This document shows, piece after piece, positions 6,593-23,664 of a stretch of DNA of 32,000 nucleotides. The position numbers were made by a program, and so were the translations under genes. Each line of letters starts with the position of its first letter. Position 1 is the first letter of the stretch. Origin of the DNA: Fastidiosibacter lacustris. GTDB taxonomy: Bacteria > Pseudomonadota > Gammaproteobacteria > Francisellales > Francisellaceae. The stretch spans positions 31,917 through 63,916 of the forward strand of contig NZ_QLIR01000012.1 in assembly GCF_003428155.1 (NCBI RefSeq). Reading direction: 5' to 3'. Below the pieces are notes generated by a model, which did no database searches, had not been told where the DNA came from, and saw nothing but the letters and a program-made list of their open reading frames with translations.

Positions 6593-6793
6593 ATGGCTAA
6601 GAAAAAAGACATTAAAAGTTATAAAAAAGATGAATTTGTGAGTTTAGTTGCAGAAAAAATGAATACAACCAAAGACACGGCTAATAGATCAGTTGATGCC
6701 TTTATTGAAGCGGTCACAGATATTGTCAAAAACGGTGATTCGGTTAATTTCATTGGCTTTGGCAAGTTTAGTGTGGGTGAACGTGCAGCGTGA
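6593..6793 (+). pseudogene. HU/IHF-fold DNA-binding protein lacking the beta-arm (66 aa; truncated or frameshifted)
   Basis: AAAGGAG SD. FVSLVAEKMNTTKDTANRSVDAFIEAVTDIVKNGDSVNFIGFGKFSVGERAA* matches the HU helical body up to the conserved R-A-A. It stops where the R-x-G-R-N-P beta-arm should begin. The TGA overlaps a GTG (GTGA) that opens the next ORF. Confidence 0.55.
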
Positions 6794-7740
6794 AGACAAA
6801 GAAACGAAGTAAAAGCCATACGAGCCATAAAAGCAGTGGAAGCAATCGCAACAAAAGGAATAAAAGGAATGATCTTTTCGAGTTTTCAAGCGCACTTGAT
6901 TTGATGTTAGCGGGACATGATCAGGTGATTGGCTCAGATTTTATTATGCGTAAGCGTGACACGTTAAATGCTGACATTGGTCATTTAAACCCAGATGACT
7001 TAAATACTTACGACCAAGCTTATATTGAACGCTTAATTCACTGTCAAGCTAAGGAATGTCTTACCATTCCAACGGATGTTGAGTTGCAGCGTTTGTCTAA
7101 TGAATATACGAAACAGCGAGAGGTTTTATCTGCTTATCATGATGAAGTCGTTGATATTATGATCGATTATGACACCGAAGCTGCTAAAGAGTTGGGTAAT
7201 TTTGACCCCTACATTGATAAAGTGGTCATTCGTAATCAAGCTGAAATGAATTTTTTCTATGACTATATTACCTTGTATCGAACAGTAAAAAATAAACGTG
7301 TGATTATTGACTGGAGAGAAGCTCACCCTGATGCAGTTAATCAGAACAATAGGCAGGTTGTTACAGCACTTGAACAGGCGCGGTTTGCCATATTGCGATT
7401 AGATGAGAATTTAGCACATGGCGGTATTAGAGTTACAGATATGATTACCCAGAAAGAAAGCTTATTAATTGATAAAGCACTCAATCGTTCACGTAAAGAG
7501 GGTATGTTTTTTATTTGCTCATTATTAACAATGGGTAAATATGTGATGACAAGTGGTGGCGGTGTTCCTGTTGACCCCAAAGCCGCTGCGGGTAAATCTG
7601 CGCTAAGTCTGTCTCAACCTTATTTGGCACAATTACGTAATGCGCAATCAGTTATTGATGAAAATGTGCTGCAATGTGTCCGTAAGATATATGGACTTTG
7701 TTTGCGTGGTGGTGCCTTAAGTCATATTACGGTTCATTAA
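6790..7740 (+). CDS. Hypothetical protein (316 aa from GTG; true start may be ATG 6904 or 6946)
   Basis: Long ORF with no recognised motif. The first ~35 codons (KTKKRSKSHTSHKSSGSNRNKRNKRN) lie where the missing HU C-terminus would be, so they may be out-of-frame relic sequence. No convincing SD precedes any candidate start. Confidence 0.5.
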   Translation: MKTKKRSKSHTSHKSSGSNRNKRNKRNDLFEFSSALDLMLAGHDQVIGSDFIMRKRDTLNADIGHLNPDDLNTYDQAYIERLIHCQAKECLTIPTDVELQRLSNEYTKQREVLSAYHDEVVDIMIDYDTEAAKELGNFDPYIDKVVIRNQAEMNFFYDYITLYRTVKNKRVIIDWREAHPDAVNQNNRQVVTALEQARFAILRLDENLAHGGIRVTDMITQKESLLIDKALNRSRKEGMFFICSLLTMGKYVMTSGGGVPVDPKAAAGKSALSLSQPYLAQLRNAQSVIDENVLQCVRKIYGLCLRGGALSHITVH

Positions 7741-7744: not shown

Positions 7745-8674
7745 ATGACTGAGCAAACGAAACCACTACCGACAGCGCATGATGTCTTTTTTAAAGCCAA
7801 CCTTGCCGAAAAAAGTAAGGCAAAAGCATTACTGAAACAAATCTACTCAAAGGAGTTGGTAAGCAAGCTTGATTTAAAACATTTAAAGCACGTTCCGACT
7901 GAGTTTATACAACACAACTTGCGTAAAGTGGTCGGTGATGTGCTGTATATGACTAAGCTGAACGGCAAAGATGCTTATGTTTACGTCCTTTTTGAACATC
8001 AGTCAAGCAGTGATGAATTAATGGCATTTAGGCTGTTGTTGTATGTGGTGCAGATCATGCAACAGCATTTGCAACAGGGGCATGATAAGTTACCTATTAT
8101 TTTGCCTGCCGTTATATACCACGGCAAAGAGTCACCTTATCCTTATTCGACTGACTTGATGGACTGCTTTGCGGATAAGGAAATAGCCCAAGAATATATG
8201 TTCAAGTCATTTAATTTGCTTGACTTAACGATCATGAGTGATGATGACTTAGGCAAATTTGATGCTAATTTAGTCTTTGAATATATGCTTAAACACAGTC
8301 GGGATAACCTAACAGATAAGTTGATAAAATGGCTGTTACAGTACCCACATCAAGCGATTTATTTCATAAAATCTGGCAATAATCTGTTAAATCAAGTATT
8401 CTCATATATAGAAAGTCGCGATGATGTTGACAGTGAAGCGATAGACAAATTAATCGGTGTCATTAATGATAATACAGGTGGTGAGTTTATGAATTACTTA
8501 CAAAGGCGAGAACAAAAGGCAGAACAACAAGGTGCGATTTTAAAGGCACAAGATACTGCGAAAACTATGCTTATTGATGGTTTAGATGATAGTGTCGTTA
8601 TCAAATATACTGGACTTGACCTTGATACTGTCCTTAAACTCAAAAAAGAAATTAGCACTAAGACAAAACACTAG
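7745..8674 (+). CDS. Rpn-family recombination-promoting nuclease / putative transposase (YhgA-like PD-(D/E)XK)
   Basis: Family-typical N-terminus HDVFFKANLAEKSKAKALL. The core DVLYMTKLNGKDAYVYVLFEHQSSSDELMAFRLLLY holds the D...E-H-Q nuclease motif. There is a helical C-terminal tail. Confidence 0.8.
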   Translation: MTEQTKPLPTAHDVFFKANLAEKSKAKALLKQIYSKELVSKLDLKHLKHVPTEFIQHNLRKVVGDVLYMTKLNGKDAYVYVLFEHQSSSDELMAFRLLLYVVQIMQQHLQQGHDKLPIILPAVIYHGKESPYPYSTDLMDCFADKEIAQEYMFKSFNLLDLTIMSDDDLGKFDANLVFEYMLKHSRDNLTDKLIKWLLQYPHQAIYFIKSGNNLLNQVFSYIESRDDVDSEAIDKLIGVINDNTGGEFMNYLQRREQKAEQQGAILKAQDTAKTMLIDGLDDSVVIKYTGLDLDTVLKLKKEISTKTKH

Positions 8675-10271: not shown

Positions 10272-13200
10272 ATGATGTCAATTGGCGTTGTCAGTTCAGG
10301 CAGCAATGTACACAAGTATTTCATCGACAAAGATAATTACTATTTAACCGATAAGTCTGAGTTAAAAGAAGCGGCAACTTGGTATGGCAAAGGCGCTGAA
10401 TTACTGGGCATTAAAGGTGAGCAAGTCGATGAAAAGTTATTTTTAGATTTACTTCACGGCAGATTACCTAACGGTGAGCAAGTTGGCATTATGCGTGATG
10501 GTTCTTTCAAACATCGCCCTGCAACGGACATTACGTTTTCAGCACCTAAATCGTTATCTATTATGGGTTTGGTTGCAGGTGATACACGCTTGATTGAAGT
10601 CCATAACAAAGCTGTTGAAAAAGCATTAGGCAAGATTGAAGCTTTGTATGCTGAAGCACGTATTACTGAAAATGGCATCACAAGCTATGAAAAAACTGGG
10701 AACTTAACCATTGCCGCCTTTCGTCACACCTCATCTCGTGAAAAAGACCCGCAACTGCATACGCATGGCGTTACGATGAATTTTACGCAAAGAGAAGATG
10801 GGCAATGGCGTGCGCTATCTTCCCGTCAAAAAAATGATGTACAGCATCTTGAAAATGGCTTTAGAGAAATGCTTTATGCCAATCAGCATTACTTGGGCAT
10901 GATTTATAATAGTGAAATTGCTAAAGGCACCGTTGAATGCGGTTATGAAATCAAAGTCAAAGATCAATATGGCAACTTTGATATTGTTGGATTGTCACAA
11001 GACTATCTTGAAAGCCAATCTAAACGCAGAACACAGATTCTCAATAAGCTTGAAGAAAAAGGACTTAACGGTGCTAAAGCTGCACAAAATGCTTGCTTAG
11101 ACAGCCGTATTGCTAAAAGTGATATTTCACCTGATGAATTAAAAGCTGCATGGATTGAAGATGCCAAAGCACAAGGGGTCAGCCTTGGTAAAGTGTTTAT
11201 GGAATCTATAAACAACCTTGAGCAAGATGCAAAAGAAGAAAAGGAAGCAGAAAAGGCAAAAGAAACCAATAGCACTAAAAATAATACGCCGAATGACCAA
11301 CTACCGTCAAAAGCTTATGTCACCAGTGACCTACAAACACACTCACATAACGCCAAAGAAGCCATTAGTGATGCGGTTGCTCATTTATCTCAATATGGCG
11401 TGCAGATAAAGCATGGGGATATTATTCGCCAAGCCTTTGTTTTTTCAGCCGGACTGGTTGAGCATGATCATTTAGAAGCGGTATTGTCGGATAAGCTTAA
11501 AACAGGTGAGCTTATTGGGCGTGAGCATCAATACTATACGACAGATCAATTAGTAAAAGTCGAAAAAGATTTCATGCAGTTTGCTAAAGCATCAATGGTA
11601 AGTGCATGGTCGGTTAACCTTAATCGTTCTGGGTTAGAAGCCTCATTATTTAACCATAAAGACCGCTTGCAATTGATTGATGTTAAAGGCTTGCGCAATG
11701 AAGCAAAACTGATTGACGGACTGGTTAAAACGGCTGAGAACAACGGTTTAAATGTCTATGTATTGCATCAAAACTATTCACGCTTAAATAGGCTTAAAGA
11801 AGATGTTAAACGTGATGGATCAAGCTTATGGAAAGCCTTTAAAAACCATTTTAAGCATGACTTACTGCAAACCGTTGGTAAGTTTGAGCATGATTATACG
11901 CAAAAGCTTAATAATCCTTTTTTTTCTTTTGCTCAATTAAGCCATAAGCAGGACTTAATTATTGTCGCGGATAGCCAAAAACTTGGCATTAAAGACGTTG
12001 AACGCTTAAATACATTAGCCGAAAAAGGGAAAGCTAAGATTGCCTTTTTAAATAATACCGAATCAACCCTTGGCTTTAGTGCGGGCAATCCAATGAAGCT
12101 ATTAAAAGAGTCTGGTGTTAATCAGTTAAGATCACAAAGCATTTCCAAGAACACGCTAGTAGAAGTGGCAAGCTTCAGTGAAGCACACAAAGCTTTAGCA
12201 TATCATTATGTTGGTTTAGATAATGAAGCTAAAAAAAATACGCCGATTGTGGCTTTTACCAATAAAGCACAAGCAGAAATCACTGGTGAGATTCGTGATC
12301 ACTTGAAAGAAAATGGCGAGCTTTCCTTACAGGAAAATCACTACCAAACACTATCAACCAGTCGCTTAAGTGACATTGAAAAAACCAAAACGCAATGCTA
12401 TCAACTTGGTGATAGCGTGACACTGAATCCGTTTGCCCAAGCTGAAGAAAATGGAAAAAGTAAAAGAAGTGAAAAAGGTGAAAAAAATGGCGAAAAGCAC
12501 AAACAGCAAAGTTATCTTGTGACGGGTATAGATCGCGACAATCAAGCTTTACACTTAACGAATCGTCACGGTGAGTCAATACAATTGTCACTGAAAAAAG
12601 AAGATTTATTTCATGCTGATGGCAGCTTTAAAGTTAATTTTGAAGCCAATAAAAGCAAAACAATGGCAATTGCTGTCGGTGAAACCCTACGAGCCACCCG
12701 TAATCTTTATCTGGATTATCAGGCGGATTCAATAGATAACAGTAGTAAAAGTGATAAAAGTGGTCAAAGCGGTGAAAGTAATAAGGATAGCAAAGTTGAA
12801 ACCGTCAAAACAGTTAAAATTGATAAAAACAGCACCTTTAAAGTGCAGTCCATTGCTGAAAATGGTATCCATATTCAGCACGACAATAAAACCATTTTTG
12901 TAGCCAATGAAAAGCTGCAAAGAAGTTTCATTGAGCATGGCTATGTCATTAAACCACATCAGTTAAGCAAGGATACTGATAGTGTTTTAACTGCGCTTTC
13001 AAGTTATCAGGTCAATCAAAATAACATTGGTGAGATTGCTGAGTTTGCGAAAAAAGTCACCCTTTTTACCGATAATCCAGAAAAAAGCACCCAAGCTTTA
13101 AACGCACAGCAAGTTTCATGGTTGGCATTAGATGTCGCCAGTGGCAAAGCACAAAGCTACAACCCGATTGTACGAACAGAAGAAGCCATCAGAAAAGACT

Positions 13201-16200
13201 TAGAGGTGGTGGCTAAAGCCTTATCTGGTGATGACAAAACCAAAGCAGATACGGCCGTTTCTTATGGTATTGCGAAACTGGCTGAGCGTGAGGCAGGCTT
13301 TCAACTGAATGACTTACTCAAAGAGTCGATGAAATATGCCCTTGGCTCGGTATCGCTTGAGGATATTGAAAAAATCATTGCTGATAAATCCAAGCAAGGT
13401 GATTTGTTGGTTACAGGACAAACAGTCACAACAGCTTATGCCTATCAGTTAGAGAAAAATATTATTCAAACGGTTAAAGACAATCACGCCAGTGTTGCAC
13501 CTATTTACGACAAAGTACCTACTTTGAGCCAGGAGATAAGTTTCACCCAAGGACAAAAAGATGCGGTGAGCTTAGCCTTAACCACCAATGATCGTTTTAT
13601 TGGGGTGCAAGGGCTTGCCGGTACAGGAAAAACCACGATGATGAAAGAGTTGAAACAACATGCTGAAAAGGCAGGATTCAATATCATTGGTATTGCGCCA
13701 ACACATAAGGCAGTGCAAATGCTTGATGAGTCTATCAATAAAGAAGTGACTGGTAGTCGCTTTGAAAAAGCGGGGATTCCGGTGATTACTGCACATAGTT
13801 TTATTAATAAAACAAATACAACACATGATGGACACGATACGAACAAGATAGATAACAGCAAAACCCTGTTTATTATTGATGAATCATCGATGTTGGGTAA
13901 TCGGATTTATCATGATATTCAAAAGAAAATTGTTAGTCTCAATGCCAGAGGCATCTTCTCAGGCGATATTAAGCAACAGGTGGCGATTGAAAGCGGGAAA
14001 CCGCAAGAGTTAAGCATGAATAACGGCTTAAAATATGCCTCAATGAATGAAATTGTGCGCCAAAACCCTAACCCACAATTAAAAATGTCGGCTGTATTAG
14101 CAGCAGATAAACAACCGGCTAAAGCATTAATCAATCTTGAAAGTATTAATCCTTTTGATCATATTCAGCGTAAGGATTTTTACAGTAGCGAGCCAATTTC
14201 TTTTATTGAAGTTGGTGCCGCAAAGGATGGTCAAGGCAAAGTATTACTAGATGACAATGGCAAACCCTCGTTAACTAATCTATATGATGTAATTGCTAAG
14301 GATGTATTAACACGCATACCAGAACAGCGCGAAAATACCATTGTGGTTGCTTCAACGCATAAAGATCGCCATGAGATAGATCAACGTATTCGCCAAGGAC
14401 TCATTAATGATGATCACATTAAAAATGAAGTCAATGCAACTCGTTTAATGTCAAAAAACATTGATCAAGCAGATATGTTACATGCTAAAAACTATGAGGT
14501 TGGTGACATACTACGCTTTGAAAGAGGTTACTCAGTTGCCAAAAAAGGGGATTACATGCAAGTGATTGGTATTGATGAAAGCCAAAATAAACTCAATGTG
14601 ATAAACATCGGTGATGGCAATAACTACAGTATCAATCCTGCCAGTATTGCCTTAAAAGCCGATATGAGTGTTTATAAAGAACTAGAAGTACAACTTGGTG
14701 TTGGTGATCGCATCCGACTACGCCAAAGTGACCCTAAGCGTGGTTGGGTCGGTGGTGCTGAGTATAAAGTCAGTGCCATTGAAGATGGTAAGGCTTATTT
14801 AACTTATTTACATCACACGAATGCACAGAATAATAAGCATAATGAAAATAACACGCATACTCATAACCTCACCATTCATCTTACGGATAAAAAAGATCAG
14901 CTTTGGGATTACGCTTATACCAATACAACCTATAGTGCCCAAGGCGCTACGTCCAAATATTTTATTGGGTTAGCCGATGAAAATTATCGTTCGATGTATA
15001 TTCAGCTAACACGCGCAAGCATGCAAGCAACGATATACACAGCGAACAAAGTAAAGCTCCTCAATGGCTTAGAAGATGCTAGACGGCAACTGCAAGCTGA
15101 TAAACTATCCGCTTATGAGATGCTGCATCAAAGCCATCAACAAAAAGAAATTGAAAAAAATGAAACAATTAAAACAATTAAAATAACAAAAGGTGCCTAC
15201 AATAAGCAACATCAAATCAGCAATACTAATGTAAGTGTCGATGGAAAGGGCATACCTATTGCTAAAACACGAGATAAAACAGGGTATACTGCTAAAGAAA
15301 AAATAGAAAAACCAGTTTTAGCTGATGATATTAAGCCACTTTTACGCCAGAGAATGGAGGAGTTAGCGATAAGCTTATTGGGTGAACCTAACAAAGCACT
15401 CTCAAATCAAACCCAGTTACGGTTTGGTAAAAATGGCAGTTTAACGGTGAATTTAGAAAAGGCACAATGGTTCTCACATGAAACTGGCAAGGGTGGCAAT
15501 CCCTTTGATCTCATCAAACATGAGCTGAATTTTAGTGACTTCAAGGATGTCTTGGACTATGCCAAAAAGTTTGTCAATTACACGCCAGATATGCAGTATA
15601 TTGAAGTTAAACCTAAGCCTACTGAGCAAATCAATCTTGAAGATGAAAAACGACAAGAGAGAAAAGAGAAACAAGAGCAAATGAAAGCATTAGGTGATAG
15701 GTTATATCAGCAGTCTGTACCCATTAAAGGCACACTTGGTGAAAAGTATCTAGCAGAATGTAGAGGATTATCATGCTATGAAAATGCAGATATTCGTTTT
15801 GTAAATTCGATCTCTGGCATCGACAAAACAACTGGTAATAGAATCTATACCCCTGCTATTTTATCAGTTGCTAAAGATGATAAAGATGCGCTTCACCATG
15901 TGCAAGTAATTCGATTAAATCAAGATGGCAGCAAAAATAAAGACGTTAAAATCACCAAACAAACTTATGGTAAAATGGATGGCTTTGCTGTGGATTTAAA
16001 CACCAAAGCCGATAAGTCTGTCACCTATCTTGCCGAGGGTGTTGAAACAGGATTATCCATTCTTAATATTCATAAAAATGCACACGTTTTAGCCGTTTTA
16101 GGGAAGTCAAATTTTGCAAATATAAATACAGATAAGCTTGCTGATAAGATAGTTATTTGCCTTGATAATGATTTTAAAGGGAAAGATACATTTAATAATG

Positions 16201-16805
16201 AGCAGAAATTATCAGATCATATTAAATCTATAAAAAGAAACTGTGAACAAATAAATGCGTTAGCTAACCACTTCAAAAGTTACGGAAAAGAGGTACGTTT
16301 TATATTACCAGATAGAGATAAATTTGACTTTAATGATGTATTAAATCAACAAGGATATGCTGAACTTAGCAGACAAGTAAATCAGCTAATAACAGAAAAA
16401 GACTTTAGTAAAATAACGAATAAGTATATTGAAATAAAATTAAATCACATCAATGACGAGATGAGTAAGCACATTAAGTCAATAAAAAATGAATATGAAA
16501 AATCAATTATGCAACATCCTAGTTTAAATCATTTAAACTCATGTCACGATAAGGGCTTATTAATAAATGAGACTATTAATAAATCGAATATTTATAAAGA
16601 TACACTGCTATCAGATCAACGAATAATGGATGCAAAGAAACGTCTTGATAGTCAATTACAAAATCAAATTCGACATGACCAGATTGAAAATATCGTTGGC
16701 AAAATAGATAAAGTAGATAAAATAAATAAGATAGATAAAACACCTAATGCAAAACATCAGGAAACGCTAAAATCACAATCAGTTAATAAGGAAATTGAGC
16801 GATAG
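10272..16805 (+). CDS. traI: TraI: MOB-F relaxase + RecD-like helicase + C-terminal Toprim/primase-like module (2177 aa)
   Basis: AGGAGA SD. The N-terminus MMSIGVVSSGSNVHKYFIDKDNYY...GKGAELLG...HRPATDITFSAPKSLS parallels F TraI (MMSIAQVRSAGSAGNYYTDKDNYY...GKGAEQLG...HRPGYDLTFSAPKSVS), including Tyr16. His triad HTSSREKDPQLHTH at 10724-10766. Walker A GLAGTGKTT at 13611-13637. C-terminal Toprim signature: AEGVETG (Glu 16035-16037) and ICLDNDFKG (DxD 16164-16172). Confidence 0.92.
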   Translation: MMSIGVVSSGSNVHKYFIDKDNYYLTDKSELKEAATWYGKGAELLGIKGEQVDEKLFLDLLHGRLPNGEQVGIMRDGSFKHRPATDITFSAPKSLSIMGLVAGDTRLIEVHNKAVEKALGKIEALYAEARITENGITSYEKTGNLTIAAFRHTSSREKDPQLHTHGVTMNFTQREDGQWRALSSRQKNDVQHLENGFREMLYANQHYLGMIYNSEIAKGTVECGYEIKVKDQYGNFDIVGLSQDYLESQSKRRTQILNKLEEKGLNGAKAAQNACLDSRIAKSDISPDELKAAWIEDAKAQGVSLGKVFMESINNLEQDAKEEKEAEKAKETNSTKNNTPNDQLPSKAYVTSDLQTHSHNAKEAISDAVAHLSQYGVQIKHGDIIRQAFVFSAGLVEHDHLEAVLSDKLKTGELIGREHQYYTTDQLVKVEKDFMQFAKASMVSAWSVNLNRSGLEASLFNHKDRLQLIDVKGLRNEAKLIDGLVKTAENNGLNVYVLHQNYSRLNRLKEDVKRDGSSLWKAFKNHFKHDLLQTVGKFEHDYTQKLNNPFFSFAQLSHKQDLIIVADSQKLGIKDVERLNTLAEKGKAKIAFLNNTESTLGFSAGNPMKLLKESGVNQLRSQSISKNTLVEVASFSEAHKALAYHYVGLDNEAKKNTPIVAFTNKAQAEITGEIRDHLKENGELSLQENHYQTLSTSRLSDIEKTKTQCYQLGDSVTLNPFAQAEENGKSKRSEKGEKNGEKHKQQSYLVTGIDRDNQALHLTNRHGESIQLSLKKEDLFHADGSFKVNFEANKSKTMAIAVGETLRATRNLYLDYQADSIDNSSKSDKSGQSGESNKDSKVETVKTVKIDKNSTFKVQSIAENGIHIQHDNKTIFVANEKLQRSFIEHGYVIKPHQLSKDTDSVLTALSSYQVNQNNIGEIAEFAKKVTLFTDNPEKSTQALNAQQVSWLALDVASGKAQSYNPIVRTEEAIRKDLEVVAKALSGDDKTKADTAVSYGIAKLAEREAGFQLNDLLKESMKYALGSVSLEDIEKIIADKSKQGDLLVTGQTVTTAYAYQLEKNIIQTVKDNHASVAPIYDKVPTLSQEISFTQGQKDAVSLALTTNDRFIGVQGLAGTGKTTMMKELKQHAEKAGFNIIGIAPTHKAVQMLDESINKEVTGSRFEKAGIPVITAHSFINKTNTTHDGHDTNKIDNSKTLFIIDESSMLGNRIYHDIQKKIVSLNARGIFSGDIKQQVAIESGKPQELSMNNGLKYASMNEIVRQNPNPQLKMSAVLAADKQPAKALINLESINPFDHIQRKDFYSSEPISFIEVGAAKDGQGKVLLDDNGKPSLTNLYDVIAKDVLTRIPEQRENTIVVASTHKDRHEIDQRIRQGLINDDHIKNEVNATRLMSKNIDQADMLHAKNYEVGDILRFERGYSVAKKGDYMQVIGIDESQNKLNVINIGDGNNYSINPASIALKADMSVYKELEVQLGVGDRIRLRQSDPKRGWVGGAEYKVSAIEDGKAYLTYLHHTNAQNNKHNENNTHTHNLTIHLTDKKDQLWDYAYTNTTYSAQGATSKYFIGLADENYRSMYIQLTRASMQATIYTANKVKLLNGLEDARRQLQADKLSAYEMLHQSHQQKEIEKNETIKTIKITKGAYNKQHQISNTNVSVDGKGIPIAKTRDKTGYTAKEKIEKPVLADDIKPLLRQRMEELAISLLGEPNKALSNQTQLRFGKNGSLTVNLEKAQWFSHETGKGGNPFDLIKHELNFSDFKDVLDYAKKFVNYTPDMQYIEVKPKPTEQINLEDEKRQERKEKQEQMKALGDRLYQQSVPIKGTLGEKYLAECRGLSCYENADIRFVNSISGIDKTTGNRIYTPAILSVAKDDKDALHHVQVIRLNQDGSKNKDVKITKQTYGKMDGFAVDLNTKADKSVTYLAEGVETGLSILNIHKNAHVLAVLGKSNFANINTDKLADKIVICLDNDFKGKDTFNNEQKLSDHIKSIKRNCEQINALANHFKSYGKEVRFILPDRDKFDFNDVLNQQGYAELSRQVNQLITEKDFSKITNKYIEIKLNHINDEMSKHIKSIKNEYEKSIMQHPSLNHLNSCHDKGLLINETINKSNIYKDTLLSDQRIMDAKKRLDSQLQNQIRHDQIENIVGKIDKVDKINKIDKTPNAKHQETLKSQSVNKEIER

Positions 16806-16887: not shown

Positions 16888-17217
16888 TTATTTCCCACTT
16901 TTCCCTTTCAAATAAGCTGATGTTTTGTTTTCAATCATCGTTATCAATGTATCGGCATCAAAGAATTTACCTGTTGTTTTAGTTTTATCAAAGACACAGC
17001 GTATAATCTCTTTAACCACTTCGTTGGTTTCAATGGCATATTTCACACTATCATCTACTGCAAGATCATCTGATGACTTATCTAGCGATGATTTATGCAC
17101 TCTTAATCCTAAATCAAGCATATCAAGCGCAAAGTTAGCCGTTGATTTACTACTGCTTTTGGCATGTTTTTCTAATTCTTCATAGACATTAGCGCCTATA
17201 TCTAATTTCATTTCCAT
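16888..17217 (-). CDS. traM: TraM-like relaxosome accessory protein (RHH-type N-terminus)
   Basis: MEMKLDIGANVYEELEKHAK...ANFALDMLDLGLRVHKSS resembles F TraM (VNLYISNDAYEKINAI...ATASMLLELGLRVHEAQ as recalled). Size is similar (109 vs 127 aa) and it lies next to the predicted oriT. The third codon ATG (17209-17211) overlaps the upstream gene's TGA as ATGA, so the start may be 17211. Confidence 0.55.
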   Translation of the reverse strand: MEMKLDIGANVYEELEKHAKSSSKSTANFALDMLDLGLRVHKSSLDKSSDDLAVDDSVKYAIETNEVVKEIIRCVFDKTKTTGKFFDADTLITMIENKTSAYLKGKSGK

Positions 17218-17705
17218 TGGTTTTTATCCTCTTCAATTGGAATAGTTTTCATGTTATTTCTATCATTTGAAACATAAATATTTTTATATTCTTCACCTTG
17301 AATCTGTCCACATTTTTTCACTGTTTCATCTAGAGAAATGGCGAATATTTTCTTGGCAATCTCGGTATCATTTATCTTGCCTAAAAGACATTTCGTGCTT
17401 ATTTGTGCTGCATGAACAAGGTGAGGTATCATAATATTTATTTGCTCTGTTAACTTTACTAAATGATTAATGTCATCAGAAATAACAACGTTTTTACCTT
17501 GTTTTTCTTCCTTTTTTTCCAATATTTTTTCGCGAATTAAATGCTTAATTGCCAAACCCAATGATGGCTCATTGTTACTTTTTAATAATGCGTTGTCATA
17601 TGCCAATTTGGTTAGATACTTTTCTTCGGTTTCAGATAACCTTAATGAGGTTGGGTATTGTTTTGATTCCATAAGGCGTTTTTGCTTGATTTTTATGTAG
17701 TGCAT
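17208..17705 (-). CDS. Ribbon-helix-helix protein, candidate TraY-like oriT-binding/regulatory factor
   Basis: PTSLRLSETEEKYLTKLAYDNALLKSNNEPSLGLAIKHLIREKIL fits the RHH pattern (beta strand then two helices). It is the first gene leftward of the predicted oriT and is translationally coupled to the TraM-like gene. The start is uncertain (17705 or 17672; neither has an SD). Confidence 0.5.
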   Translation of the reverse strand: MHYIKIKQKRLMESKQYPTSLRLSETEEKYLTKLAYDNALLKSNNEPSLGLAIKHLIREKILEKKEEKQGKNVVISDDINHLVKLTEQINIMIPHLVHAAQISTKCLLGKINDTEIAKKIFAISLDETVKKCGQIQGEEYKNIYVSNDRNNMKTIPIEEDKNQWK

Positions 17706-18254
17706 TGTAGCGCATATAAAGTGGACTTGCTAGCTATTTGTATCACATTTTACTACTTATAACGGTTTTATAAGGCTAGTCTCTGTATTAAATTGTGCTA
17801 CAATCAGGCTAATGAGTATATCCCTTGTACTACAATGTAGTTTTTACATATAAATACTTTACTCTGATGCCAAGAGATGCTTATAAATAAAGGCTTCTCT
17901 ATGTATTATTTTTTGCTACAAGATAATCAGGAGTATTTTTAATGATTTTATATTCGCTAAAAAAAGCCAAAAGCCTTTATTTACAAGACTTTGAATAAGC
18001 CTTTTTAGGCAACACTCGATTGCGTGGTGTGTGGCAGGGTCAGGGAGGTCGTGTCGAGGATACCTTGGATTTAATGTAATGATTATGATAATCGTTATCG
18101 TACAGTGTGCGTATGAAAATTGAGCAGACAATCCTATGCCGTTTGAATGGAAATTGACATTTTAAGCCTATACCTTTTAAAAAGATGGAATAAAATTAAA
18201 GGACAATAAAAACAAGATAAAATCGGTTTGATTTTTTAAAAAAATATTATTTTT
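17706..18254 (+). other. Probable origin of transfer (oriT) region
   Basis: A 549-bp gene-free interval between the RHH/TraM-like genes and ardC. It contains an F/R100-like nic sequence, three ATTGTAG/CTACAAT motifs (two of them palindromic) and a perfect 13-bp inverted repeat (17884-17896 / 17971-17983). Confidence 0.6.
18020..18037 (+). other. Candidate nic site (predicted cleavage between 18032 and 18033)
   Basis: TTGCGTGGTGTGT|GGCAG compared with F TTTGCGTGGGGTGT|GGTGC and R100 TTTGCGTAGTGTGT|GGTGC, both as recalled. It matches F at 14 of 15 positions over TTGCGTGG.GTGTGG. At the two positions that differ between F and R100 it carries one base of each. Confidence 0.55.
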
Positions 18255-19208
18255 CTATGTAACTTTTTCATATTGATCATTTACATTAATATTCAAAAGA
18301 AAACTAAAAACTTTTACGCAACATTTAACAGCTTCCATATAATCATCATCTGTTAAAAGTGAAAGCCAACTTTCAATATATTTTTCATGATTTTTTATCT
18401 CGCCATTAATACCAAAATGCTTTAATAAAATGGTGCTGCTGATCTCAGCAATTAACTCTTCTTTTGCATAAGACTTTTTGCATGAAAAATTTATTTCTCG
18501 ATTTAATCTGCTTGGATGCAATGTCCAATGCGCTAACTCATGCAAAAGCGTTGCCTGATAGTCTGCCTCAGTTCTAAAATATTTTGGGCTTGGCAGCCTT
18601 ATTTCGTCTAACTCTGGTGAGTAATAAGCTTGACCAATGTCATGATGAACAATTTTTGGATTGTGTGCATTAATCAAGCTTTCGATACCACTATCAGTTT
18701 TTATTTCCTGATCAACATCTTTTAAGGTTGTTTGCGTTAAATTAAAAACGCGGTACATTTTAGGGCATATAGCAGTATATTTGTATTTATCACCCGCTTT
18801 AACTTTAACTAAATGACCATTGTTTTTATATTCATAATCAGTTTTCGCGTCACCTTCCTTTTTGTAAGTTGTAAAGAAAAAGACTTCTTCCGATTTTTCA
18901 CCTTTACGCACACTCCCACCAAGTTCATTTATTTGTTTGAAAGTAAACCATTGATTAGACTTGTATTTATTTTCAAGTTGCGAAAATAATAATTGCAAAA
19001 CGTTAACGCCGTTATATAGTTTTGATTGACTATTAACAGGCAATAACTGACTTCCTGAGCGATCAAAATTATCTACCCAAACGTCTGCGCCTTTTTTGAT
19101 ATTTTCTTTAATCTTTTGAGCAATAGACAAAACATAATCCTGATATGTTGTTTTTACTGTTTTTGAAGTTTTTAAAGTGCTATATTTTTTTACTTTTGTT
19201 GTAGTCAT
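18255..19208 (-). CDS. ardC: ArdC-like antirestriction protein (N-terminal ssDNA-binding domain + C-terminal zincin metalloprotease)
   Basis: 317 aa with a GGAG SD. The N-terminal part is DUF1738-like. The C-terminal part has LLHELAHWTLHPSRLNR (HExxH) followed by YAKEELIAEISS, typical of ArdC/TraC-type proteins. Confidence 0.85.
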   Translation of the reverse strand: MTTTKVKKYSTLKTSKTVKTTYQDYVLSIAQKIKENIKKGADVWVDNFDRSGSQLLPVNSQSKLYNGVNVLQLLFSQLENKYKSNQWFTFKQINELGGSVRKGEKSEEVFFFTTYKKEGDAKTDYEYKNNGHLVKVKAGDKYKYTAICPKMYRVFNLTQTTLKDVDQEIKTDSGIESLINAHNPKIVHHDIGQAYYSPELDEIRLPSPKYFRTEADYQATLLHELAHWTLHPSRLNREINFSCKKSYAKEELIAEISSTILLKHFGINGEIKNHEKYIESWLSLLTDDDYMEAVKCCVKVFSFLLNINVNDQYEKVT

Positions 19209-19246
19209 CGTATTATCTCCATTGTTGTGTTGATAACACCTTTTGC

Positions 19247-19433: not shown

Positions 19434-19739
19434 TTATGATAAATATTTTAAGCCATTCTCATCAACGAGATTAATTAGTTTTAAGATAGCACCCTTAGCT
19501 TGTCGCGTGCCCTGCTCAAGACTTTTAACCATTGCTGGACTGATATTAAGAAATTTAGCAAATACCGCTTGGCTGACGTTTTGACGTTCTCTAATTGCTT
19601 TTATATCATCGCCTGTATATTCGTATACTGTTGGCGTTTCAACTTCGGTTAATTCGCGCAGGGTTGTTTTGTCAATAATACCACTGGTGTATAGATCATT
19701 TGACAAGTCGTTTATGGTTTCTCTTATGCTGCTCATCAT
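19434..19739 (-). CDS. HTH (XRE/NadS-type) antitoxin
   Basis: IKAIRERQNVSQAVFAKFLNISPAMVKSLEQGTRQAKGAILKLINLV is the typical HTH of antitoxins paired with PF06296-type RelE toxins. Its ATG overlaps the toxin's TGA (ATGA at 19736-19739). Confidence 0.8.
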   Translation of the reverse strand: MMSSIRETINDLSNDLYTSGIIDKTTLRELTEVETPTVYEYTGDDIKAIRERQNVSQAVFAKFLNISPAMVKSLEQGTRQAKGAILKLINLVDENGLKYLS

Positions 19740-20107
19740 ATCACCTTAAATAGTTTTTTATCTGCGATTAACGTTTGCACATCACTATCACTTAATGACA
19801 GTAATATGCTAGACAACTTTTTAAAGTCCACAAGCTCGCGCTTTGTGAAGTTTTCTTTTTCATTCTTTTTAAAGCAATGCACCCAGTAACATACAACGCC
19901 ATCACTAAAAACAATAATGGTTCGACTGCTGCCGCTTTTGCCTTTATTGTCTGTCGCTACTCTAAGCTTATATAAGCTGCCACCTAATGCATATCTTTGC
20001 TTACCCAAGTCATCTAGTGAAGCAAAGTAATTTAATGTTTCTTTTAAATCTGCATCGCTAATATGTTTTGATTCACTTGCAAACTTTTTTATTTTATAAT
20101 TTTTCAT
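19736..20107 (-). CDS. RelE/HigB-2-like toxin (123 aa from ATG 20107)
   Basis: LGGSLYKLRVATDNKGKSGSSRTIIVF...FKKNEKENFTKRELVDFKKL matches the G-x-YK-R-ia...GKSGG-R-i...F-KNe-eNl-E signature. The track's extra 41 N-terminal residues are AT-rich promoter sequence. Confidence 0.75.
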   Translation of the reverse strand: MKNYKIKKFASESKHISDADLKETLNYFASLDDLGKQRYALGGSLYKLRVATDNKGKSGSSRTIIVFSDGVVCYWVHCFKKNEKENFTKRELVDFKKLSSILLSLSDSDVQTLIADKKLFKVI

Positions 20108-20118
20108 GCTTAAAATAG

Positions 20119-20166
20119 TTGGCTGTATGTTACATAGTATTATAATACACTGGCTTACCATGTCAA
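20119..20166. promoter_or_regulatory. Back-to-back sigma70 promoters sharing one palindromic -10
   Basis: Minus strand: TTGACA (20161-20166), 16 nt, TATAAT (20139-20144), reading into the toxin gene. Plus strand: TTGGCT (20119-20124), 16 nt, TATAAT (20141-20146), reading into the 81-aa gene. Both -10 boxes lie inside the perfect 12-bp palindrome GTATTATAATAC (20137-20148). Confidence 0.55.
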
Positions 20167-20223
20167 TAAAACAATAAAGCAAAAAATTAAAAATAATGAT
20201 ATAAACATAAGGAAGTAAATAAC

Positions 20224-20469
20224 ATGCCAAGCATTACAAAACCATCTGCACCCAGTTATATGACGCTACCTAAAAAAGTTAGAATCACCGAGGAAACTTA
20301 CTTTAAAATGCTAGAGTATCTGGATTGGAATCAATCGCTTGATGGCGAAAACGATATTGATTTTTTAATTGAGGAATCCATTAAAATTGCACTCGAATCT
20401 GATAAAGATTTTAAGCGTAGAAATAAAGTGAAGAAAACAGCAGCGGTTAAGGAAGAAGCGACTGCATAA
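20224..20469 (+). CDS. Hypothetical small protein (81 aa, possible RHH-like regulator)
   Basis: ATG preceded by AAGGAAG. PKKVRITEETYFKMLEYL resembles an RHH strand-helix start. It is divergent from the TA operon. Confidence 0.5.
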   Translation: MPSITKPSAPSYMTLPKKVRITEETYFKMLEYLDWNQSLDGENDIDFLIEESIKIALESDKDFKRRNKVKKTAAVKEEATA

Positions 20470-21435: not shown

Positions 21436-21771
21436 CTATTGCCCATCACTAAAATACGCATCAATGCCTTTCTGTACTAGCTGATATTCAAACCCTTTAT
21501 TCAGCAAATATTTTAAAAGCTTTTGCTTCTTGCCATAATCGGTTTTGCCTTTAATCAAAGGATACTTAGCACTGATTCTGCGTAGAACATTGTTAAACTG
21601 CTGTACTTCGTCAACGACAACTAACTTGTCAATCATGCTTTGTGGTATCGCTTTCTTTTTGAGCTTATCAATCAATGCACCTGTTGATATATCTTGGTTA
21701 CTTTCAATGATACGCCTTGCTTTGTTTTCTAATAGCATATCGTTGGTTATATTGGCGTTGTCTAGAGTCAT
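21436..21771 (-). CDS. RecX-family mini-protein (two helical repeats, 111 aa)
   Basis: AAGGGA SD. KARRIIESNQDISTGALIDKLKKKAIPQSMIDKLV parallels the first repeat of E. coli RecX (RAMRLLAHRDRSEWELRRKLAQKGFSEEVIEQAI, as recalled). AKYPLIKGKTDYGKKQKLLKYLLNKGFEYQLVQKGI parallels the last repeat ([34 protein letters not shown]). The middle repeat is absent. Confidence 0.5.
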   Translation of the reverse strand: MTLDNANITNDMLLENKARRIIESNQDISTGALIDKLKKKAIPQSMIDKLVVVDEVQQFNNVLRRISAKYPLIKGKTDYGKKQKLLKYLLNKGFEYQLVQKGIDAYFSDGQ

Positions 21772-21784
21772 TGTGGCATCCCTT

Positions 21785-22486
21785 TTACATCTTTATTATT
21801 CTTTTTATCCTGTTCTGCCTTCTCTCTTCCTTAATTACCTCGGCTTCTGGTATCTGATTAAATGCAAATTTCACCTGCGCATTACTTAATATATTAGTTA
21901 GGTTAGCCGTATCTATTCGATTAACTTTTATATCTTCAGACTTGCAAAATTCCCCATTGTTATCAATCCCAATGATTATGTAGCGGCGTTCACTTTCATT
22001 GAGCGTGTTGGCTAATGATATAATATCCTTAAACAAGTCACCCTGTTTTTTTGAATCCTTAGAATACCATTCACGCTTAAAATCATGGCGTTCACTTTCT
22101 CTTTTAGATTCAATTAACGGGATTATATCTTTACGTACTTCAATATATTTAGGTGTTGCTTGCAACTCTATCTTGTCTGCATCTTCTGGTTTTAGCTCTA
22201 GTTTAGAATGTTTTATTAATACGTTTAGTAAAGCAGTCCCTTTTATTTCTAAAATATGATGGGTATTTAAGGATAAGCAGTATTTTTTATCTTTACTAAA
22301 TTCAAAGCTAAGGTTGTTTAATATATCAGACTCTCCAGCCTTGGAAAAATCATCCTCAAGGAGATTGTCAATTTTATGAAATATGCTTATTTTGACAACT
22401 ATCTCACCCTTCCTATCGCTATAGTGGCTCTGCACAATTCCAATATAGCCTTTAAGACTTAGTATCAAGTTGAAGCTCCGGAACAC
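21785..22486 (-). CDS. Protein with a C-terminal AlbA_2/Schlafen-like DNA-binding domain and an unknown N-terminal half
   Basis: ESERHDFKREWYSKDSKKQGDLFKDIISLANTLNESERRYIIIGIDNNGEF fits the AlbA_2 pattern E-x-lEFK...i-k-i-AfaNt-GG-liiGvdd-G. The track start is GTG 22486 without an SD. TTG 22468 follows GGAG at 7 nt and is the more likely start. Confidence 0.5.
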   Translation of the reverse strand: MFRSFNLILSLKGYIGIVQSHYSDRKGEIVVKISIFHKIDNLLEDDFSKAGESDILNNLSFEFSKDKKYCLSLNTHHILEIKGTALLNVLIKHSKLELKPEDADKIELQATPKYIEVRKDIIPLIESKRESERHDFKREWYSKDSKKQGDLFKDIISLANTLNESERRYIIIGIDNNGEFCKSEDIKVNRIDTANLTNILSNAQVKFAFNQIPEAEVIKEERRQNRIKRIIKM

Positions 22487-22901: not shown

Positions 22902-23117
22902 ATGAAATACCTAAGCCCTATCGCACTTATATTAATTATCATCGGTGGCTTAAACTGGCTGCTCGTTGGTTTGTTCAATTTCAATCTCGTCCATGCCATT
23001 TTTGGCAAACTGGGCTTTGTTGAAAACATCATCTACATTATCGTAGGTATTGCGGCTTTAATTTGCATTCCCATGCTCAAGAAATGCTGCCCAAAATCAT
23101 CTTGCAACAAGGACTAA
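22902..23117 (+). CDS. DUF378-family small membrane protein
   Basis: AAAGGAG SD. IIGGLNWLLVGLFNFNLVHAIFG...IIYIIVGIAAL is the characteristic DUF378 (YuzA-like) two-TM signature. Confidence 0.8.
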   Translation: MKYLSPIALILIIIGGLNWLLVGLFNFNLVHAIFGKLGFVENIIYIIVGIAALICIPMLKKCCPKSSCNKD

Positions 23118-23428
23118 TCAACATTGTGGGAAATCAATTTACTGATAACTTTTGCGCCGCAGTTGAAAACACAACAGGGCAGACAATTGCGGATTTTTTA
23201 ACACAATGCGCCAATCAAGGCTTGACCTACACAGAAGTTGGTGAGCTTTTTGGTTACAAGCAGAATACGGTTAGAAAATGGTGCAGACGATGCAATGTCT
23301 CGCTATACAATGAAAGCAGTCTTAAAGCGCTAAACTCACCCGTTAAAAAAGCAGCCATTGAGCAATTACTTGATGACATCAAAATCAAATCCCTTAGCTG
23401 CTCAAATGTACTGTATAAAGCTTGGTGA
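23063..23428 (+). CDS. Putative HTH protein (start uncertain; possibly GTG 23126, giving 100 aa)
   Basis: GLTYTEVGELFGYKQNTVRKWCRR is HTH-like. The track start overlaps the DUF378 gene by 55 nt. GTG 23126 lies 9 nt after the DUF378 stop. Confidence 0.45.
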   Translation: MHSHAQEMLPKIILQQGLINIVGNQFTDNFCAAVENTTGQTIADFLTQCANQGLTYTEVGELFGYKQNTVRKWCRRCNVSLYNESSLKALNSPVKKAAIEQLLDDIKIKSLSCSNVLYKAW

Positions 23429-23433
23429 AAATC

Positions 23434-23664
23434 ATGCAGCGCTTGGAAACAGAAACCAAGTTTTATGAGATAATCGTTAATCAGGATTTATTAGGCGACA
23501 TAGTTTTAATTTGCTATTTTGGCGGAAAAAACAGCCATCGCCATCAGTCAAAAACGATCAAGTTAGATTCGTTTTTACAATACTGTAAAGCGTATAAAAA
23601 AATTATCACTACCCGATTGAAACATGGGTATTGGTTTATCCATCATTCACCGCAAGACTTTTAA
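23434..23664 (+). CDS. WGR-domain-like small protein (76 aa)
   Basis: KFYEIIVNQDLLGDIVLICYFGGKNSHRHQSKTIKLDS...AYKKIITTRLKHGYW follows the WGR pattern (kfYEi-v-dLfG-w-l-WGRiG...f-s...A...K-kGY). The WGR triplet itself has degenerated to YFGG. The ATG lies 6 nt after the upstream stop. Confidence 0.5.
   Translation: MQRLETETKFYEIIVNQDLLGDIVLICYFGGKNSHRHQSKTIKLDSFLQYCKAYKKIITTRLKHGYWFIHHSPQDF

Follow-up and report, generated by a model that had tools for sequence, protein, structure and literature searches.

A DnaG-type primase module at the C-terminus of the F-like relaxase-helicase TraI of Fastidiosibacter lacustris

The window analysed here, a stretch of 32,000 nt from contig NZ_QLIR01000012.1 of Fastidiosibacter lacustris, carries traI downstream of the F-type transfer genes TraG, TraT and TraD. 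An earlier sequence-only reading had proposed that the 2177-aa TraI combines an F-like relaxase and a RecD-like helicase with a C-terminal Toprim/primase-like module. The features of the locus are:

10272..16805, + strand: traI, whole gene; a single 2177-aa ORF for relaxase, helicase and primase
10308..11171, + strand: TrwC-type (MOBF) HUH relaxase domain, residues 13–300
13545..15101, + strand: active SF1B RecD-like helicase, residues ~1092–1610
15102..15353, + strand: low-complexity linker at the helicase/primase boundary, residues 1611–1694
about 15354..16376, + strand: primase module, whole, residues ~1695–2035
15354..15686, + strand: zinc-ribbon-like domain without zinc ligands, residues ~1695–1805
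15687..15995, + strand: DUF7146, N-terminal subdomain of the primase RNA-polymerase core, residues 1806–1908
16026..16355, + strand: Toprim catalytic domain, residues 1919–2028
16173..16733, + strand: recombinant patch, residues 1968–2154
16377..16802, + strand: C-terminal tail, poorly conserved, residues 2036–2177
18020..18034, + strand: candidate oriT nic motif TTGCGTGGTGTGTGG, with likeness to the F nic site

The TraI frame is uninterrupted by stop codons, and Pfam domains within this one ORF bear out both the relaxase and the helicase. The protein matches the TraI profile TIGR02760 with 1259 bits (cutoff 930). The relaxase domain is recognised by Pfam TrwC (E = 1.1e-75) and by NCBIfam MobF (E = 3e-78), and features the motif residues Y16, Y23/Y24 and HTH (residues 163–165, within LHTHGV). 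The helicase part is matched by Pfam AAA_30 (E = 2e-40) and by AAA_19; its Walker A motif is GLAGTGKT, with GTGKT at residues 1117–1121, and the alignment of PRK14712 to TraI extends as far as residue 1605. The linker that follows is just 62–68% identical to that of the Cysteiniphilum homologue, and where it enters our AlphaFold2 model (residues 1660–1672, i.e., model positions 1–13), pLDDT is below 50. We sought an internal start preceded by a Shine-Dalgarno sequence across residues 1600–1725 and found none.

The candidate nic site is located at nt ~18032, roughly 1.2 kb 3′ of traI, in a motif that resembles the F nic-site sequence; eight related loci have the same motif downstream of traI, with the spacing conserved. 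Directly past it are an ArdC gene (18255–19208) and other minus-strand genes, as expected of a leading region. A DUF3987 helicase-like protein is encoded at 23727–25208, with an HTH protein nearby, and nothing in the 32-kb window stood out as a Rep initiator.

The C-terminal module consists of a Cys-free zinc-ribbon-like domain, DUF7146 and Toprim_3, in that order. The first domain opens with MEELAISLLGEPN, the point at which stand-alone homologues start in the alignment, and includes RFGKNGSLTVNLEKAQWFSHETGKGGNPFDLI (residues 1717–1748; nt 15420–15515). DUF7146 (Pfam E = 5.6e-14; score 52.8 bits, gathering cutoff 27) harbours GEKYLAECRGL (residues 1823–1833) and IRFV (1841–1844). In Toprim_3 (Pfam E = 4e-14; score 53 bits, gathering cutoff 27.2), LAEGVETGLSI spans residues 1920–1930 and contains E1922 and E1925, VICLDNDFKGKD spans residues 1961–1972 and contains D1965-N-D1967, and a further Toprim motif, DFNDVL, occupies residues 2019–2024 (D2019-F-N-D2022). 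Each motif quoted in the sequence-only reading was located where it had been placed, and the residue numbers given there for E1922, D1965 and D1967 are correct, as follows from the positions of LAEGVETGLSI and VICLDNDFKGKD, respectively. The domain check it had suggested, for a DUF7146/COG4643-type domain plus Toprim, yielded profile matches to both, the Toprim family being Toprim_3.

In a profile search of the PDB by sequence only, similarity to DnaG is marginal (E = 0.054). The AlphaFold2 model of residues 1660–2060 has a mean pLDDT of 90.7, and its top Foldseek matches are exclusively DnaG, T4 gp61, T7 gp4 and Twinkle primases: the best PDB match is 2au3 (E = 3.8e-10), followed by 8dvf_H, 5vaz, 5guj, 1nui and Twinkle, and the best viral structure matches are again all DnaG/Twinkle-type primases. 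The model aligns over its full length with 2au3, a DnaG structure comprising the ZBD and RPD, while the isolated ZBD 1d0q is matched with a TM-target of 0.67 (rmsd 2.8 Å); the DxD of TraI lines up with the DSD/DGD motif of DnaG. DnaG, T7 gp4 and Twinkle have the same ZBD, N-terminal RNA-polymerase subdomain and Toprim fold as well as the same acidic metal-binding residues, albeit that the TraI module has no counterpart of the DnaB-binding C-terminal domain of DnaG. The Pfam matches and the predicted structure, on which the primase assignment is built, confirm the C-terminal extension as a complete DnaG-type primase module whose E...DxD centre is intact.

Conservation was counted in 51 fused homologues. 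E1922, G1923, D1965, D1967, D2019, N2021 and D2022 occur in all of them, and these invariant residues include the 'DaN-' motif, a signature of active DnaG-like primases in conjugative elements (Iyer et al., PMC5512222). In DUF7146, Y1826 and R1831 are likewise present in 51/51 and K1896 in 50/51. The primase part is under purifying selection, its dN/dS being 0.086 as compared to 0.087 for the helicase and 0.42 for the linker. The zinc ligands are gone: no cysteine occurs in residues 1690–1829 of TraI, in agreement with the absence of zinc-finger cysteines noted before, and the zinc-ribbon-like domain has no conserved Cys across the 51 homologues. In a manual alignment with the CHC2 motif of DnaG, all four ligands are replaced, by L, G, S and T (residues 1716–1742). 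Zinc-binding residues serve template recognition in DnaG and T7 gp4; since they are absent here and family-wide, initiation must differ or need a partner.

The same family-wide loss could signify that the module does not prime at all and is rather a ssDNA-binding or protein-docking module (e.g., for TraD, TraM or polymerase recruitment) or a Toprim nuclease, Toprim domains being known also in nucleases (OLD, Gabija GajA) and topoisomerases. We consider this improbable. The invariance of E, DxD, DxND, Y1826 and R1831, with K1896 kept in all but one sequence, makes a mere docking domain unlikely, the full-length fold match is to ZBD+RPD primases and not to OLD or topoisomerases, and the low dN/dS of the primase part likewise speaks against it.

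The three-part architecture had been thought unfamiliar for F-type TraI, and this implied novelty finds no support. The curated NCBIfam/TIGRFAM equivalog TIGR02760 'TraI' (1960 positions) already covers the primase module, which on its own matches model positions 1555–1928 (E = 1.9e-63), and the same fusion is plainly annotated 'TraI' on ~150 plasmids of Piscirickettsia, Legionella, Vibrio, Shewanella and Photobacterium. Of ~170 distinct homologues examined, 49 have the extension, and the fusion is present in dozens of 50%-identity clusters. TIGR02760-type TraIs, extant on plasmids and ICEs of the above genera and Cysteiniphilum, share the full order of TrwC, vestigial and active helicase, linker, DUF7146 plus Toprim_3 and tail, and their loci share with the one described here the gene order TraT-TraD-...-TraI and, after it, two small convergent genes. 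In the literature searched, we came upon no member of the fused family that had been tested biochemically or genetically.

Stand-alone homologues start exactly at the equivalent of M1695, and in one P. salmonis plasmid record a 1541-aa TraI and a 390-aa toprim protein have separate CDSs, as could be expected if the fusion were a product of faulty annotation or assembly, or if traI had only recently, and by accident, come to be read through into a stand-alone toprim gene. This is hardly credible, as it is contradicted by the survey of fused homologues: the continuous fused ORF occurs in at least 35 genomic loci and in 49 cluster representatives from different orders, and the curated TIGR02760 model crosses the junction. 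Compared with its intact sister plasmids, the split P. salmonis record shows a 5-bp length difference, consistent with a frameshift or a sequencing error.

The three-part design is the normal form of a large, catalogued TraI family, not a new invention; the unusual one is F itself. F TraI, whose length of 1756 aa agrees with that given in the sequence-only reading, is collinear with the TraI described here over ~1650 aa (25% identity, E = 3e-117) through the relaxase, vestigial helicase and active helicase, including the MMSI...DKDNYY start and LHTH motifs, and the F-type gene neighbourhood of TraG, TraT and TraD is shared with F, R1 and R100. Enterobacterial F-like TraI carries TraI_C (PF07057; residues 1465–1622 in F) and no Toprim, whereas here TraI_C is absent and the primase takes its position. 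Model NF010263 (F/R1/R100 TraI, MOBF12, Enterobacteriaceae) scores 604 bits with our TraI, far under its cutoff of 2212.

The module occurs on three relaxase-helicase backbones: long F-like TraI, short TrwC-like proteins (~1300 aa) and MobA/MobL TraA(Ti)-like proteins. This recurrence argues for a selected functional coupling. In Rickettsiales TraA(Ti)/RAGE TraI (P0101, P0108, P0116), the same DUF7146 plus Toprim_3 lie C-terminal to the relaxase-helicase, but the relaxase is MobA/MobL (MOBQ-type) instead of TrwC (MOBF), and the primase is just ~27–31% identical to ours. The relaxase-helicase-Toprim architecture of R. bellii has been described (PMC4564193), and a TraI 'Toprim region' is listed in PMC10732058.

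RSF1010/R1162 MobA-RepB′ also unites a relaxase and a C-terminal primase in one polypeptide, albeit without a helicase domain. RepB′ is an AEP-like primase, not a Toprim/DnaG-type one, and RP4 TraC1 and Sog are closer functional relatives of the TraI module. According to the part of PMC12857230 that cites Henderson & Meyer (1999), the MobA-linked primase of R1162/RSF1010 is required for efficient mobilisation, which provides a precedent for transfer that depends on a primase joined to the relaxase; RepB/RepB′ is cited there as a replication primase and as the C-terminal part of MobA. By that example, the TraI module could serve vegetative replication of the element, like RepB′ at oriV, with the fusion a mere matter of expression or economy and the DUF3987 protein as a possible partner; the lack of a recognised Rep initiator and the proximity of the DUF3987 and HTH proteins would suit this. 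It seems a poor prospect nevertheless. RepB′ is also made from an internal start, whereas TraI shows none for a free primase; the window is just 32 kb, so a Rep gene may be elsewhere; and the module, found in TraI on widely differing replicons and in ICE-like chromosomal settings (Legionella, Rickettsiales, others), travels with transfer genes, not with replication genes.

RP4 TraC1 and ColIb-P9/R64 Sog, also encoded by conjugative elements, have EG..T. and DxD motifs and a Toprim of PF13362, the TOPRIM profile in PMC7213743, where the domain is stated to be common to both; their likeness to TraI is by way of that profile. They are separate proteins, in contrast to the relaxase-helicase-fused primase of TraI, and the ArdC-type domain fused to the primase in TraC1 (PMC7213743, PMC5512222) is specified here by a separate gene. 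TraC1 and Sog are passed on to the recipient cell (PMC7213743), where they prime DNA replication (PMC5512222); for TraI, we infer both by analogy, and hold it to be somewhat probable that its primase primes complementary-strand synthesis on the T-strand in the recipient. The relaxase would nick oriT at the candidate site and, remaining in covalent linkage with the T-strand 5′ end, be exported via TraD through the F-type T4SS. The primase would refold in the recipient and synthesise short RNA primers along the single strand that has entered, from which host DNA polymerase III would make the complementary strand independently of recipient DnaG or special priming sites. With its primase joined to a 5′→3′ translocase that tracks the same strand, TraI would then resemble a T7 gp4/Twinkle-type primosome made of a single chain. 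Priming in the recipient has its difficulties: with its anchor at the 5′ end, the relaxase is ill-placed for priming that starts toward the 3′ side, so that looping, release or a second TraI molecule would be needed, and a folded module of ~340 aa must cross the T4SS unfolded.

In favour of action in the donor is that nothing in these data points to export. In addition, the primase follows immediately on a 5′→3′ helicase that is active in the donor, and this pairing is retained with three relaxase types; the primase might prime replacement-strand (donor conjugal) synthesis, the nic 3′-OH being held by the relaxosome, and the fusion would serve only to put the primase at the fork opened by the TraI helicase. 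We regard this as unlikely, although less so than a replicative or non-priming role. A free 3′-OH for rolling-circle extension and host DnaG are at hand in the donor, making any advantage doubtful; the helicase travels on the T-strand and not on the retained strand that needs replacement; and TraC1 and Sog, the characterised conjugative Toprim primases, act in the recipient.

The closest relative of our TraI is that of Cysteiniphilum sp. JM-1 (relaxase 98%, helicase 93% and primase 78% identity); no near-identical record was found in PLSDB, nor an exact match in the protein collection searched. The blastn alignment with JM-1 (89%) covers 10272–16172, ends at the DND codons and restarts at 16734; in between, protein identity to the Cysteiniphilum homologue drops from ~90% to ~35%. 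Unlike in other TIGR02760-type TraIs, the patch of residues 1968–2154, i.e., the C-terminal half of Toprim with a 17-aa insert and most of the tail, derives from another lineage than the rest of traI. Exceptions to the poor conservation of the tail are RHDQIENI and the terminal SQSVNKEIER, and most fused TraIs share an acidic/hydrophobic terminus of the form ...E-[RK]-E-[ILY].

The traI gene is a single open reading frame of 2177 codons (10272-16805, plus strand) in which relaxase, helicase and primase parts follow one another. Its domains are listed here by residue.

Domains assigned in the window TraI
Residues 13-300: TrwC/MobF relaxase (Pfam and NCBIfam; Pfam TrwC, E = 1.1e-75)
Residues ~1092-1610: RecD-like SF1B helicase (AAA_30 and AAA_19 profiles; AAA_30, E = 2.2e-40)
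Residues ~1695-1805: ZBD-like domain (AlphaFold2 model and Foldseek)
Residues 1806-1908: DUF7146 (Pfam, E = 5.6e-14, well over the gathering score)
Residues 1919-2028: Toprim_3 (Pfam, E = 4e-14; 53 bits against a gathering score of 27.2)

The N-terminal part scores 263 bits with the NCBIfam MobF profile (cutoff 100) and 322 bits with TIGR02686 (cutoff 145.5). Its tyrosines Y16 and Y23-Y24 (KYFIDKDNYY) align with Y16 and Y23-Y24 of F TraI, although the first tyrosine pair reads YF in the window relaxase and YY in F TraI; the histidine triad H152...H163-T-H165 aligns with H..HTH of F. By profile and catalytic residues, this part is a MOBF relaxase. In the helicase part, the Walker A motif GTGKT occupies residues 1117-1121 and the Walker B motif IIDESSM aligns with LLDESSM of F; profiles and Walker motifs together point to an SF1B helicase of the RecD-like type. 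The Pfam match to TraI_2B, the region where F/R1 TraI carries translocation signals, is weak (E = 0.0011, below the gathering score).

F TraI (1756 aa, from NC_002483) and the window TraI are collinear over ~1650 aa, with 25% identity (E = 3e-117). F TraI carries TraI_C (PF07057) at residues 1465-1622, whereas the window TraI has the primase in that place and gave no Pfam match to PF07057. With the model for F TraI proper (NF010263 / PRK13709), the window TraI scores 604 bits, far from the cutoff of 2212.

The sequence-only reading had proposed that TraI bears a C-terminal Toprim/primase-like extension. The sequence blocks it quoted are all present, its numbering of E1922, D1965 and D1967 is exact and the length it gave for F TraI is correct; therefore, the observation stands confirmed. 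DUF7146 and Toprim_3, both above their gathering scores, and the predicted fold support its reading of the domains. An AlphaFold2 model of residues 1660-2060, built from an alignment of 28 homologues (mean pLDDT 90.7), was searched against the PDB with Foldseek; all 21 matches at E <= 0.001 are primases, and one more primase domain was matched with a weaker E-value. The ZBD+RPD structure of Aquifex DnaG (2au3) gave E = 3.8e-10 with the whole length aligned, and the other matches include T4 gp61, T7 gp4, human Twinkle and RNA-polymerase domains from the DnaG proteins of P. aeruginosa, B. subtilis and M. tuberculosis (among the RPDs, 5vaz, 5guj and 5w34). The weaker match was to the isolated DnaG zinc-binding domain 1d0q, at E = 1.7e-2 (TM-target 0.67, rmsd 2.8 Å), and a Foldseek search of viral models agrees with the PDB result. 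Because the fold matches are primases, the module is predicted to be a complete DnaG-like primase, with a ZBD-like domain, DUF7146 as the N-subdomain and Toprim. A nuclease, a topoisomerase or a RecR-type Toprim protein can be ruled out, since the matches at E <= 0.001 are primases throughout and the primase-specific DaN- motif is present. A phmmer search of the PDB with the C-terminal 568 aa returned zero matches, and a profile search reached DnaG marginally (E = 0.054-2.5), pairing DND of the window TraI with DSD, the catalytic motif of B. subtilis DnaG (E = 0.054); thus, the primase assignment rests on Pfam and the predicted structure.

The module deviates from DnaG in its zinc site. Residues 1690-1829 contain no Cys, as the sequence-only reading had remarked of the zinc-finger cysteines; no Cys is conserved among 51 homologues, and Pfam gave no match to zf-CHC2 or Prim_Zn_Ribbon in the window TraI even at E <= 10. 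In a manual alignment to the DnaG motif, the four CHC2 ligand positions read L, G, S and T. From sequence and model, the Glu and DxD of a DnaG-type Toprim and the N-subdomain are in place, and the zinc-binding CHC2/C4 ligands missing.

Conservation was assessed in an alignment of 51 proteins that combine relaxase, helicase and primase in a single chain. E1922, G1923, D1965, D1967, D2019, N2021, D2022, Y1826 and R1831 are invariant in all 51, and K1896 is retained in 50. The stretch D2019-F-N-D2022 corresponds to the DaN- motif (defined in PMC5512222), with D, N and D in 51/51 and F or Y at the second position in 42/51. Compared with Cysteiniphilum sp. JM-1, the closest relative, dN/dS is 0.057 for the relaxase, 0.087 for the helicase, 0.086 for the N part of the primase and 0.42 for the linker; by these values, the primase module is as constrained as the helicase. 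A non-catalytic role for the module is the less likely reading.

At the helicase-primase junction, there is neither a stop codon nor an in-frame start preceded by a Shine-Dalgarno sequence; therefore, TraI is a single fused product and not two proteins. An internal start from which a separate primase would be made, as happens with RepB', Sog and TraI*, was rejected: M1695 lacks a Shine-Dalgarno sequence and there is no convincing alternative. In one P. salmonis plasmid (p2PS2, NZ_CP013764.1, 1391-7368), traI is annotated as two CDSs, a TraI of 1541 aa and a toprim domain-containing protein of 390 aa, and in the sister plasmid pPSA1-3 it is one ORF of 1992 aa. In total length, the records of the two plasmids are 5 bp apart, so that the split probably comes from a frameshift in the linker or from an error of sequencing there.

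The survey of loci and homologues, for which we analysed the ORFs of 80 genomic loci and 150 cluster representatives, rules out an artefactual fusion. With one genome taken per species, at least 35 loci carry an ORF of 1900-2200 aa that joins TrwC to helicase and primase; the genomes concerned are those of Cysteiniphilum, other Thiotrichales, many Legionella species, Legionellaceae MAGs, Berkiella and other Gammaproteobacteria. All three domains occur in 49 of the ~170 sequences examined. Searched exhaustively with HMMER, 1.84 billion cluster representatives yielded 2758 sequences related to the module; in genome contigs, a single-sequence scan gave no match and an alignment-based scan did. 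The relaxase domain as a homology query returned short fragments only, of no use for architecture. No protein record is identical to the window TraI. In PLSDB, where a search for near-identical DNA gave no match, tblastn with the module hit 377 plasmids; the matched feature is annotated "traI" in 41 plasmids of Piscirickettsia, 34 of Legionella, 54 of Vibrio, 11 of Shewanella and 11 of Photobacterium, and in Rhizobiaceae plasmids it is a stand-alone "toprim domain-containing protein". The 1992-aa TraI of P. salmonis shares the Pfam architecture and the surrounding gene order found in the window. The module also occurs on a short TrwC-type relaxase-helicase of ~1300 aa (P0085) and on TraA(Ti)-type relaxase-helicases with a MobA/MobL relaxase (P0101, P0108, P0116).

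The sequence-only reading implied that such an architecture is new for F-type TraI; this suggestion is not supported, given the "traI" annotations in five genera and a curated family that spans the primase. TIGR02760, the NCBIfam/TIGRFAM equivalog "conjugative transfer relaxase/helicase TraI" (1960 positions), scores 1259.3 bits with the full-length window TraI (cutoff 929.85), the best stretch pairing residues 847-2086 with model positions 761-1927. The C-terminal 518 aa alone match positions 1555-1928 (E = 1.9e-63), which implies that the family definition already includes the primase. The window TraI is a further member of this database-catalogued family, with a recombinant C-terminal patch.

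Among elements of bacteria with an intracellular or amoeba-associated life (Legionellales, Piscirickettsia, Rickettsiales, Holosporales, Berkiella), the module is strongly enriched; the survey loci L044-L081 belong to Rickettsiales, Holosporales, Caedibacter and other alphaproteobacterial MAGs. Several genomes carry multiple copies, among them MAGs CBDALO01 and JACDGE01, with at least four each. F-type/TrwC-type relaxases with their own primase constitute a large conserved class under strong purifying selection; they are frequent in Legionella, Vibrio, Rickettsiales and Piscirickettsia, the last a major pathogen of salmon.

The architecture is known to databases and annotation pipelines and practically uncommented in the literature. 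Our literature search on the fusion yielded only a Rickettsia TraA(Ti) description and general statements; the MobA/MobL TraA(Ti)-type fusion was described in Rickettsia bellii, where the primase domain was called unique to rickettsial relaxases (PMC4564193), and the same MobA/MobL-type architecture was noted for RAGE TraI (PMC10732058). A 2025 review lists primase domains for MOBQ relaxases only (PMC12857230). By our survey, both the MOBQ-only and the rickettsial-only statements are too narrow. No description or test of a MOBF relaxase-helicase-primase was found in the literature searched, the 2009 MOB classification review, which may mention it, aside.

Complementary-strand priming in the recipient has been studied thoroughly in IncP (TraC1), IncI (Sog) and IncQ (RepB') plasmids, and the understanding of it in F-type systems is only loose. 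The window TraI shares the DaN- motif with the TraC1/Sog group (Toprim_2/3/4 sensu Iyer et al.). Like the members of that group, it is encoded by an element with a T4SS (TraG_N, TraT, TraD and a weak TraM match in the window). PF13362, the Pfam family also found in the window TraI, is the profile for the TOPRIM domain common to RP4 TraC1 and IncI Sog, both of which are transported into the recipient (PMC7213743), where they prime replication (PMC5512222). The primase linked to the R1162 relaxase is needed for mobilisation (as cited in PMC12857230). Because TraC1 and Sog share this TOPRIM, are transported and prime in the recipient, the best-supported reading, and a plausible one, is that the TraI primase would prime on the transferred strand in the recipient. 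From its fusion to the relaxase, we infer that TraI enters the recipient and primes there; the fusion would guarantee delivery of the primase with the T-strand. Against recipient priming, however, the zinc site with which other Toprim primases recognise their template is lost, and an enzyme anchored at the 5' end would be awkwardly placed. That the primase acts in the donor, or that it serves vegetative replication, seems less likely than priming in the recipient.

The geometry of recipient priming is supported by a candidate oriT downstream of traI.

Features around the candidate oriT
16888-17217, minus: TraM-like small gene (Pfam Tra_M, E = 4e-4, below the gathering score)
17208-17705, minus: small gene with no family; convergent with traI, as is the TraM-like gene
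18020-18034, plus: candidate nic motif TTGCGTGGTGTGTGG, in the intergenic region 17706-18254
18255-19208, minus: ArdC-type anti-restriction protein (ArdcN and zincin MPTase-PolyVal), adjoining the candidate oriT

TTGCGTGGTGTGTGG resembles the nic-site sequence of F. It is preceded by a 32-nt direct repeat (17772/17890) and a 17-nt inverted repeat (17880/17971), and the motif recurs 0.7-1.25 kb downstream of traI in eight related loci (L001, L002, L003, L005, L010, L012, L014 and L016). Beyond it, every gene, those for ArdC and a RelE/HTH pair included, is encoded on the minus strand, so that the incoming plus strand would be their template, as in a leading region, which they would form. RP4 TraC1 combines an ArdC-like N-terminal region with the Toprim primase in one protein; in the window, TraI carries the primase and ArdC has a gene to itself. 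The ArdC segment is without counterpart in the Cysteiniphilum locus (blastn gap 18151-19222). On pPSA1-3 of P. salmonis, two hypothetical genes that follow traI are in synteny with the TraM-like gene and its neighbour.

A primase fused to a 5'->3' translocase that moves on the T-strand would, to our mind, resemble a primosome of the gp4/Twinkle type. It is possible, if rather doubtful, that the TraI family constitutes a self-contained "conjugative primosome", made up of a covalently piloted relaxase, a 5'->3' translocase and a zinc-independent DnaG-type primase. If so, the incoming strand would become duplex without recipient DnaG and without dedicated ssi sites, and such host independence could explain the dominance of the fusion in elements that move between distantly related intracellular and aquatic bacteria (Legionellales, Thiotrichales, Rickettsiales, Holosporales and Vibrionaceae). 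In that case, the ZBD without Cys would be a way of recognising the template that is new among Toprim primases.

Over 10272-16172, the DNA is 89% identical to that of Cysteiniphilum sp. JM-1, which suggests a Cysteiniphilum-like source (Fastidiosibacteraceae) for the window; the match breaks off precisely at the DND codons and starts again at 16734. The patch in between (16173-16733; residues 1968-2154) comprises the second half of Toprim, with a 17-aa insert after DND, and most of the tail, so that the breakpoint lies inside the catalytic Toprim; protein identity drops to ~35%. Because identity stops and resumes in this way, residues 1968-2154 derive, through recombination, from a different lineage; a metagenomic fragment (P0001) matches the patch most closely. 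At 16701-16736, a 9-nt tandem repeat (three copies) encodes KIDKVDKINKIDK in the TraI tail, a segment absent from the Cysteiniphilum homologue. Most fused TraIs (P0029-P0163) end in an acidic/hydrophobic peptide, ...[DE]-[RK]-E-[ILY] (e.g., EREL, DREI, EKEIY), preceded by ~100 unalignable residues; the window TraI ends in ...NKEIER (16770-16802), and F TraI, unlike the fused proteins, in ...KEKTLGGD. The peptide may be a docking or export/secretion signal.

The window covers the distal end of an F-type transfer region, followed by accessory genes.

Other features of the window
232-3132: TraG
3689-4447: TraT
4454-6460: TraD
6790-7740: 316-aa ORF with no Pfam family
7745-8674: YhgA-like transposase (Transposase_31), inserted between traD and traI
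19434-20230 (minus), 21436-22486 (minus), 23063-25208 (plus), 27362-27970 (plus): accessory genes
30002-31803, minus: group II intron (Rfam Intron_gpII at 30002-30077, group-II-D1D4-2 at 31689-31803)

The ~1.6 kb between the YhgA-like gene and 10271 contain no ORF longer than 87 aa. The group II intron, whose parts flank an RT/maturase ORF (30076-31335), was the only element found by an Rfam scan of the window. The accessory set includes an HTH/RelE toxin-antitoxin pair, a RecX-like protein, Schlafen AlbA_2, an HTH protein, after it a DUF3987 protein (493 aa) that is possibly a replication helicase, and a serine resolvase.
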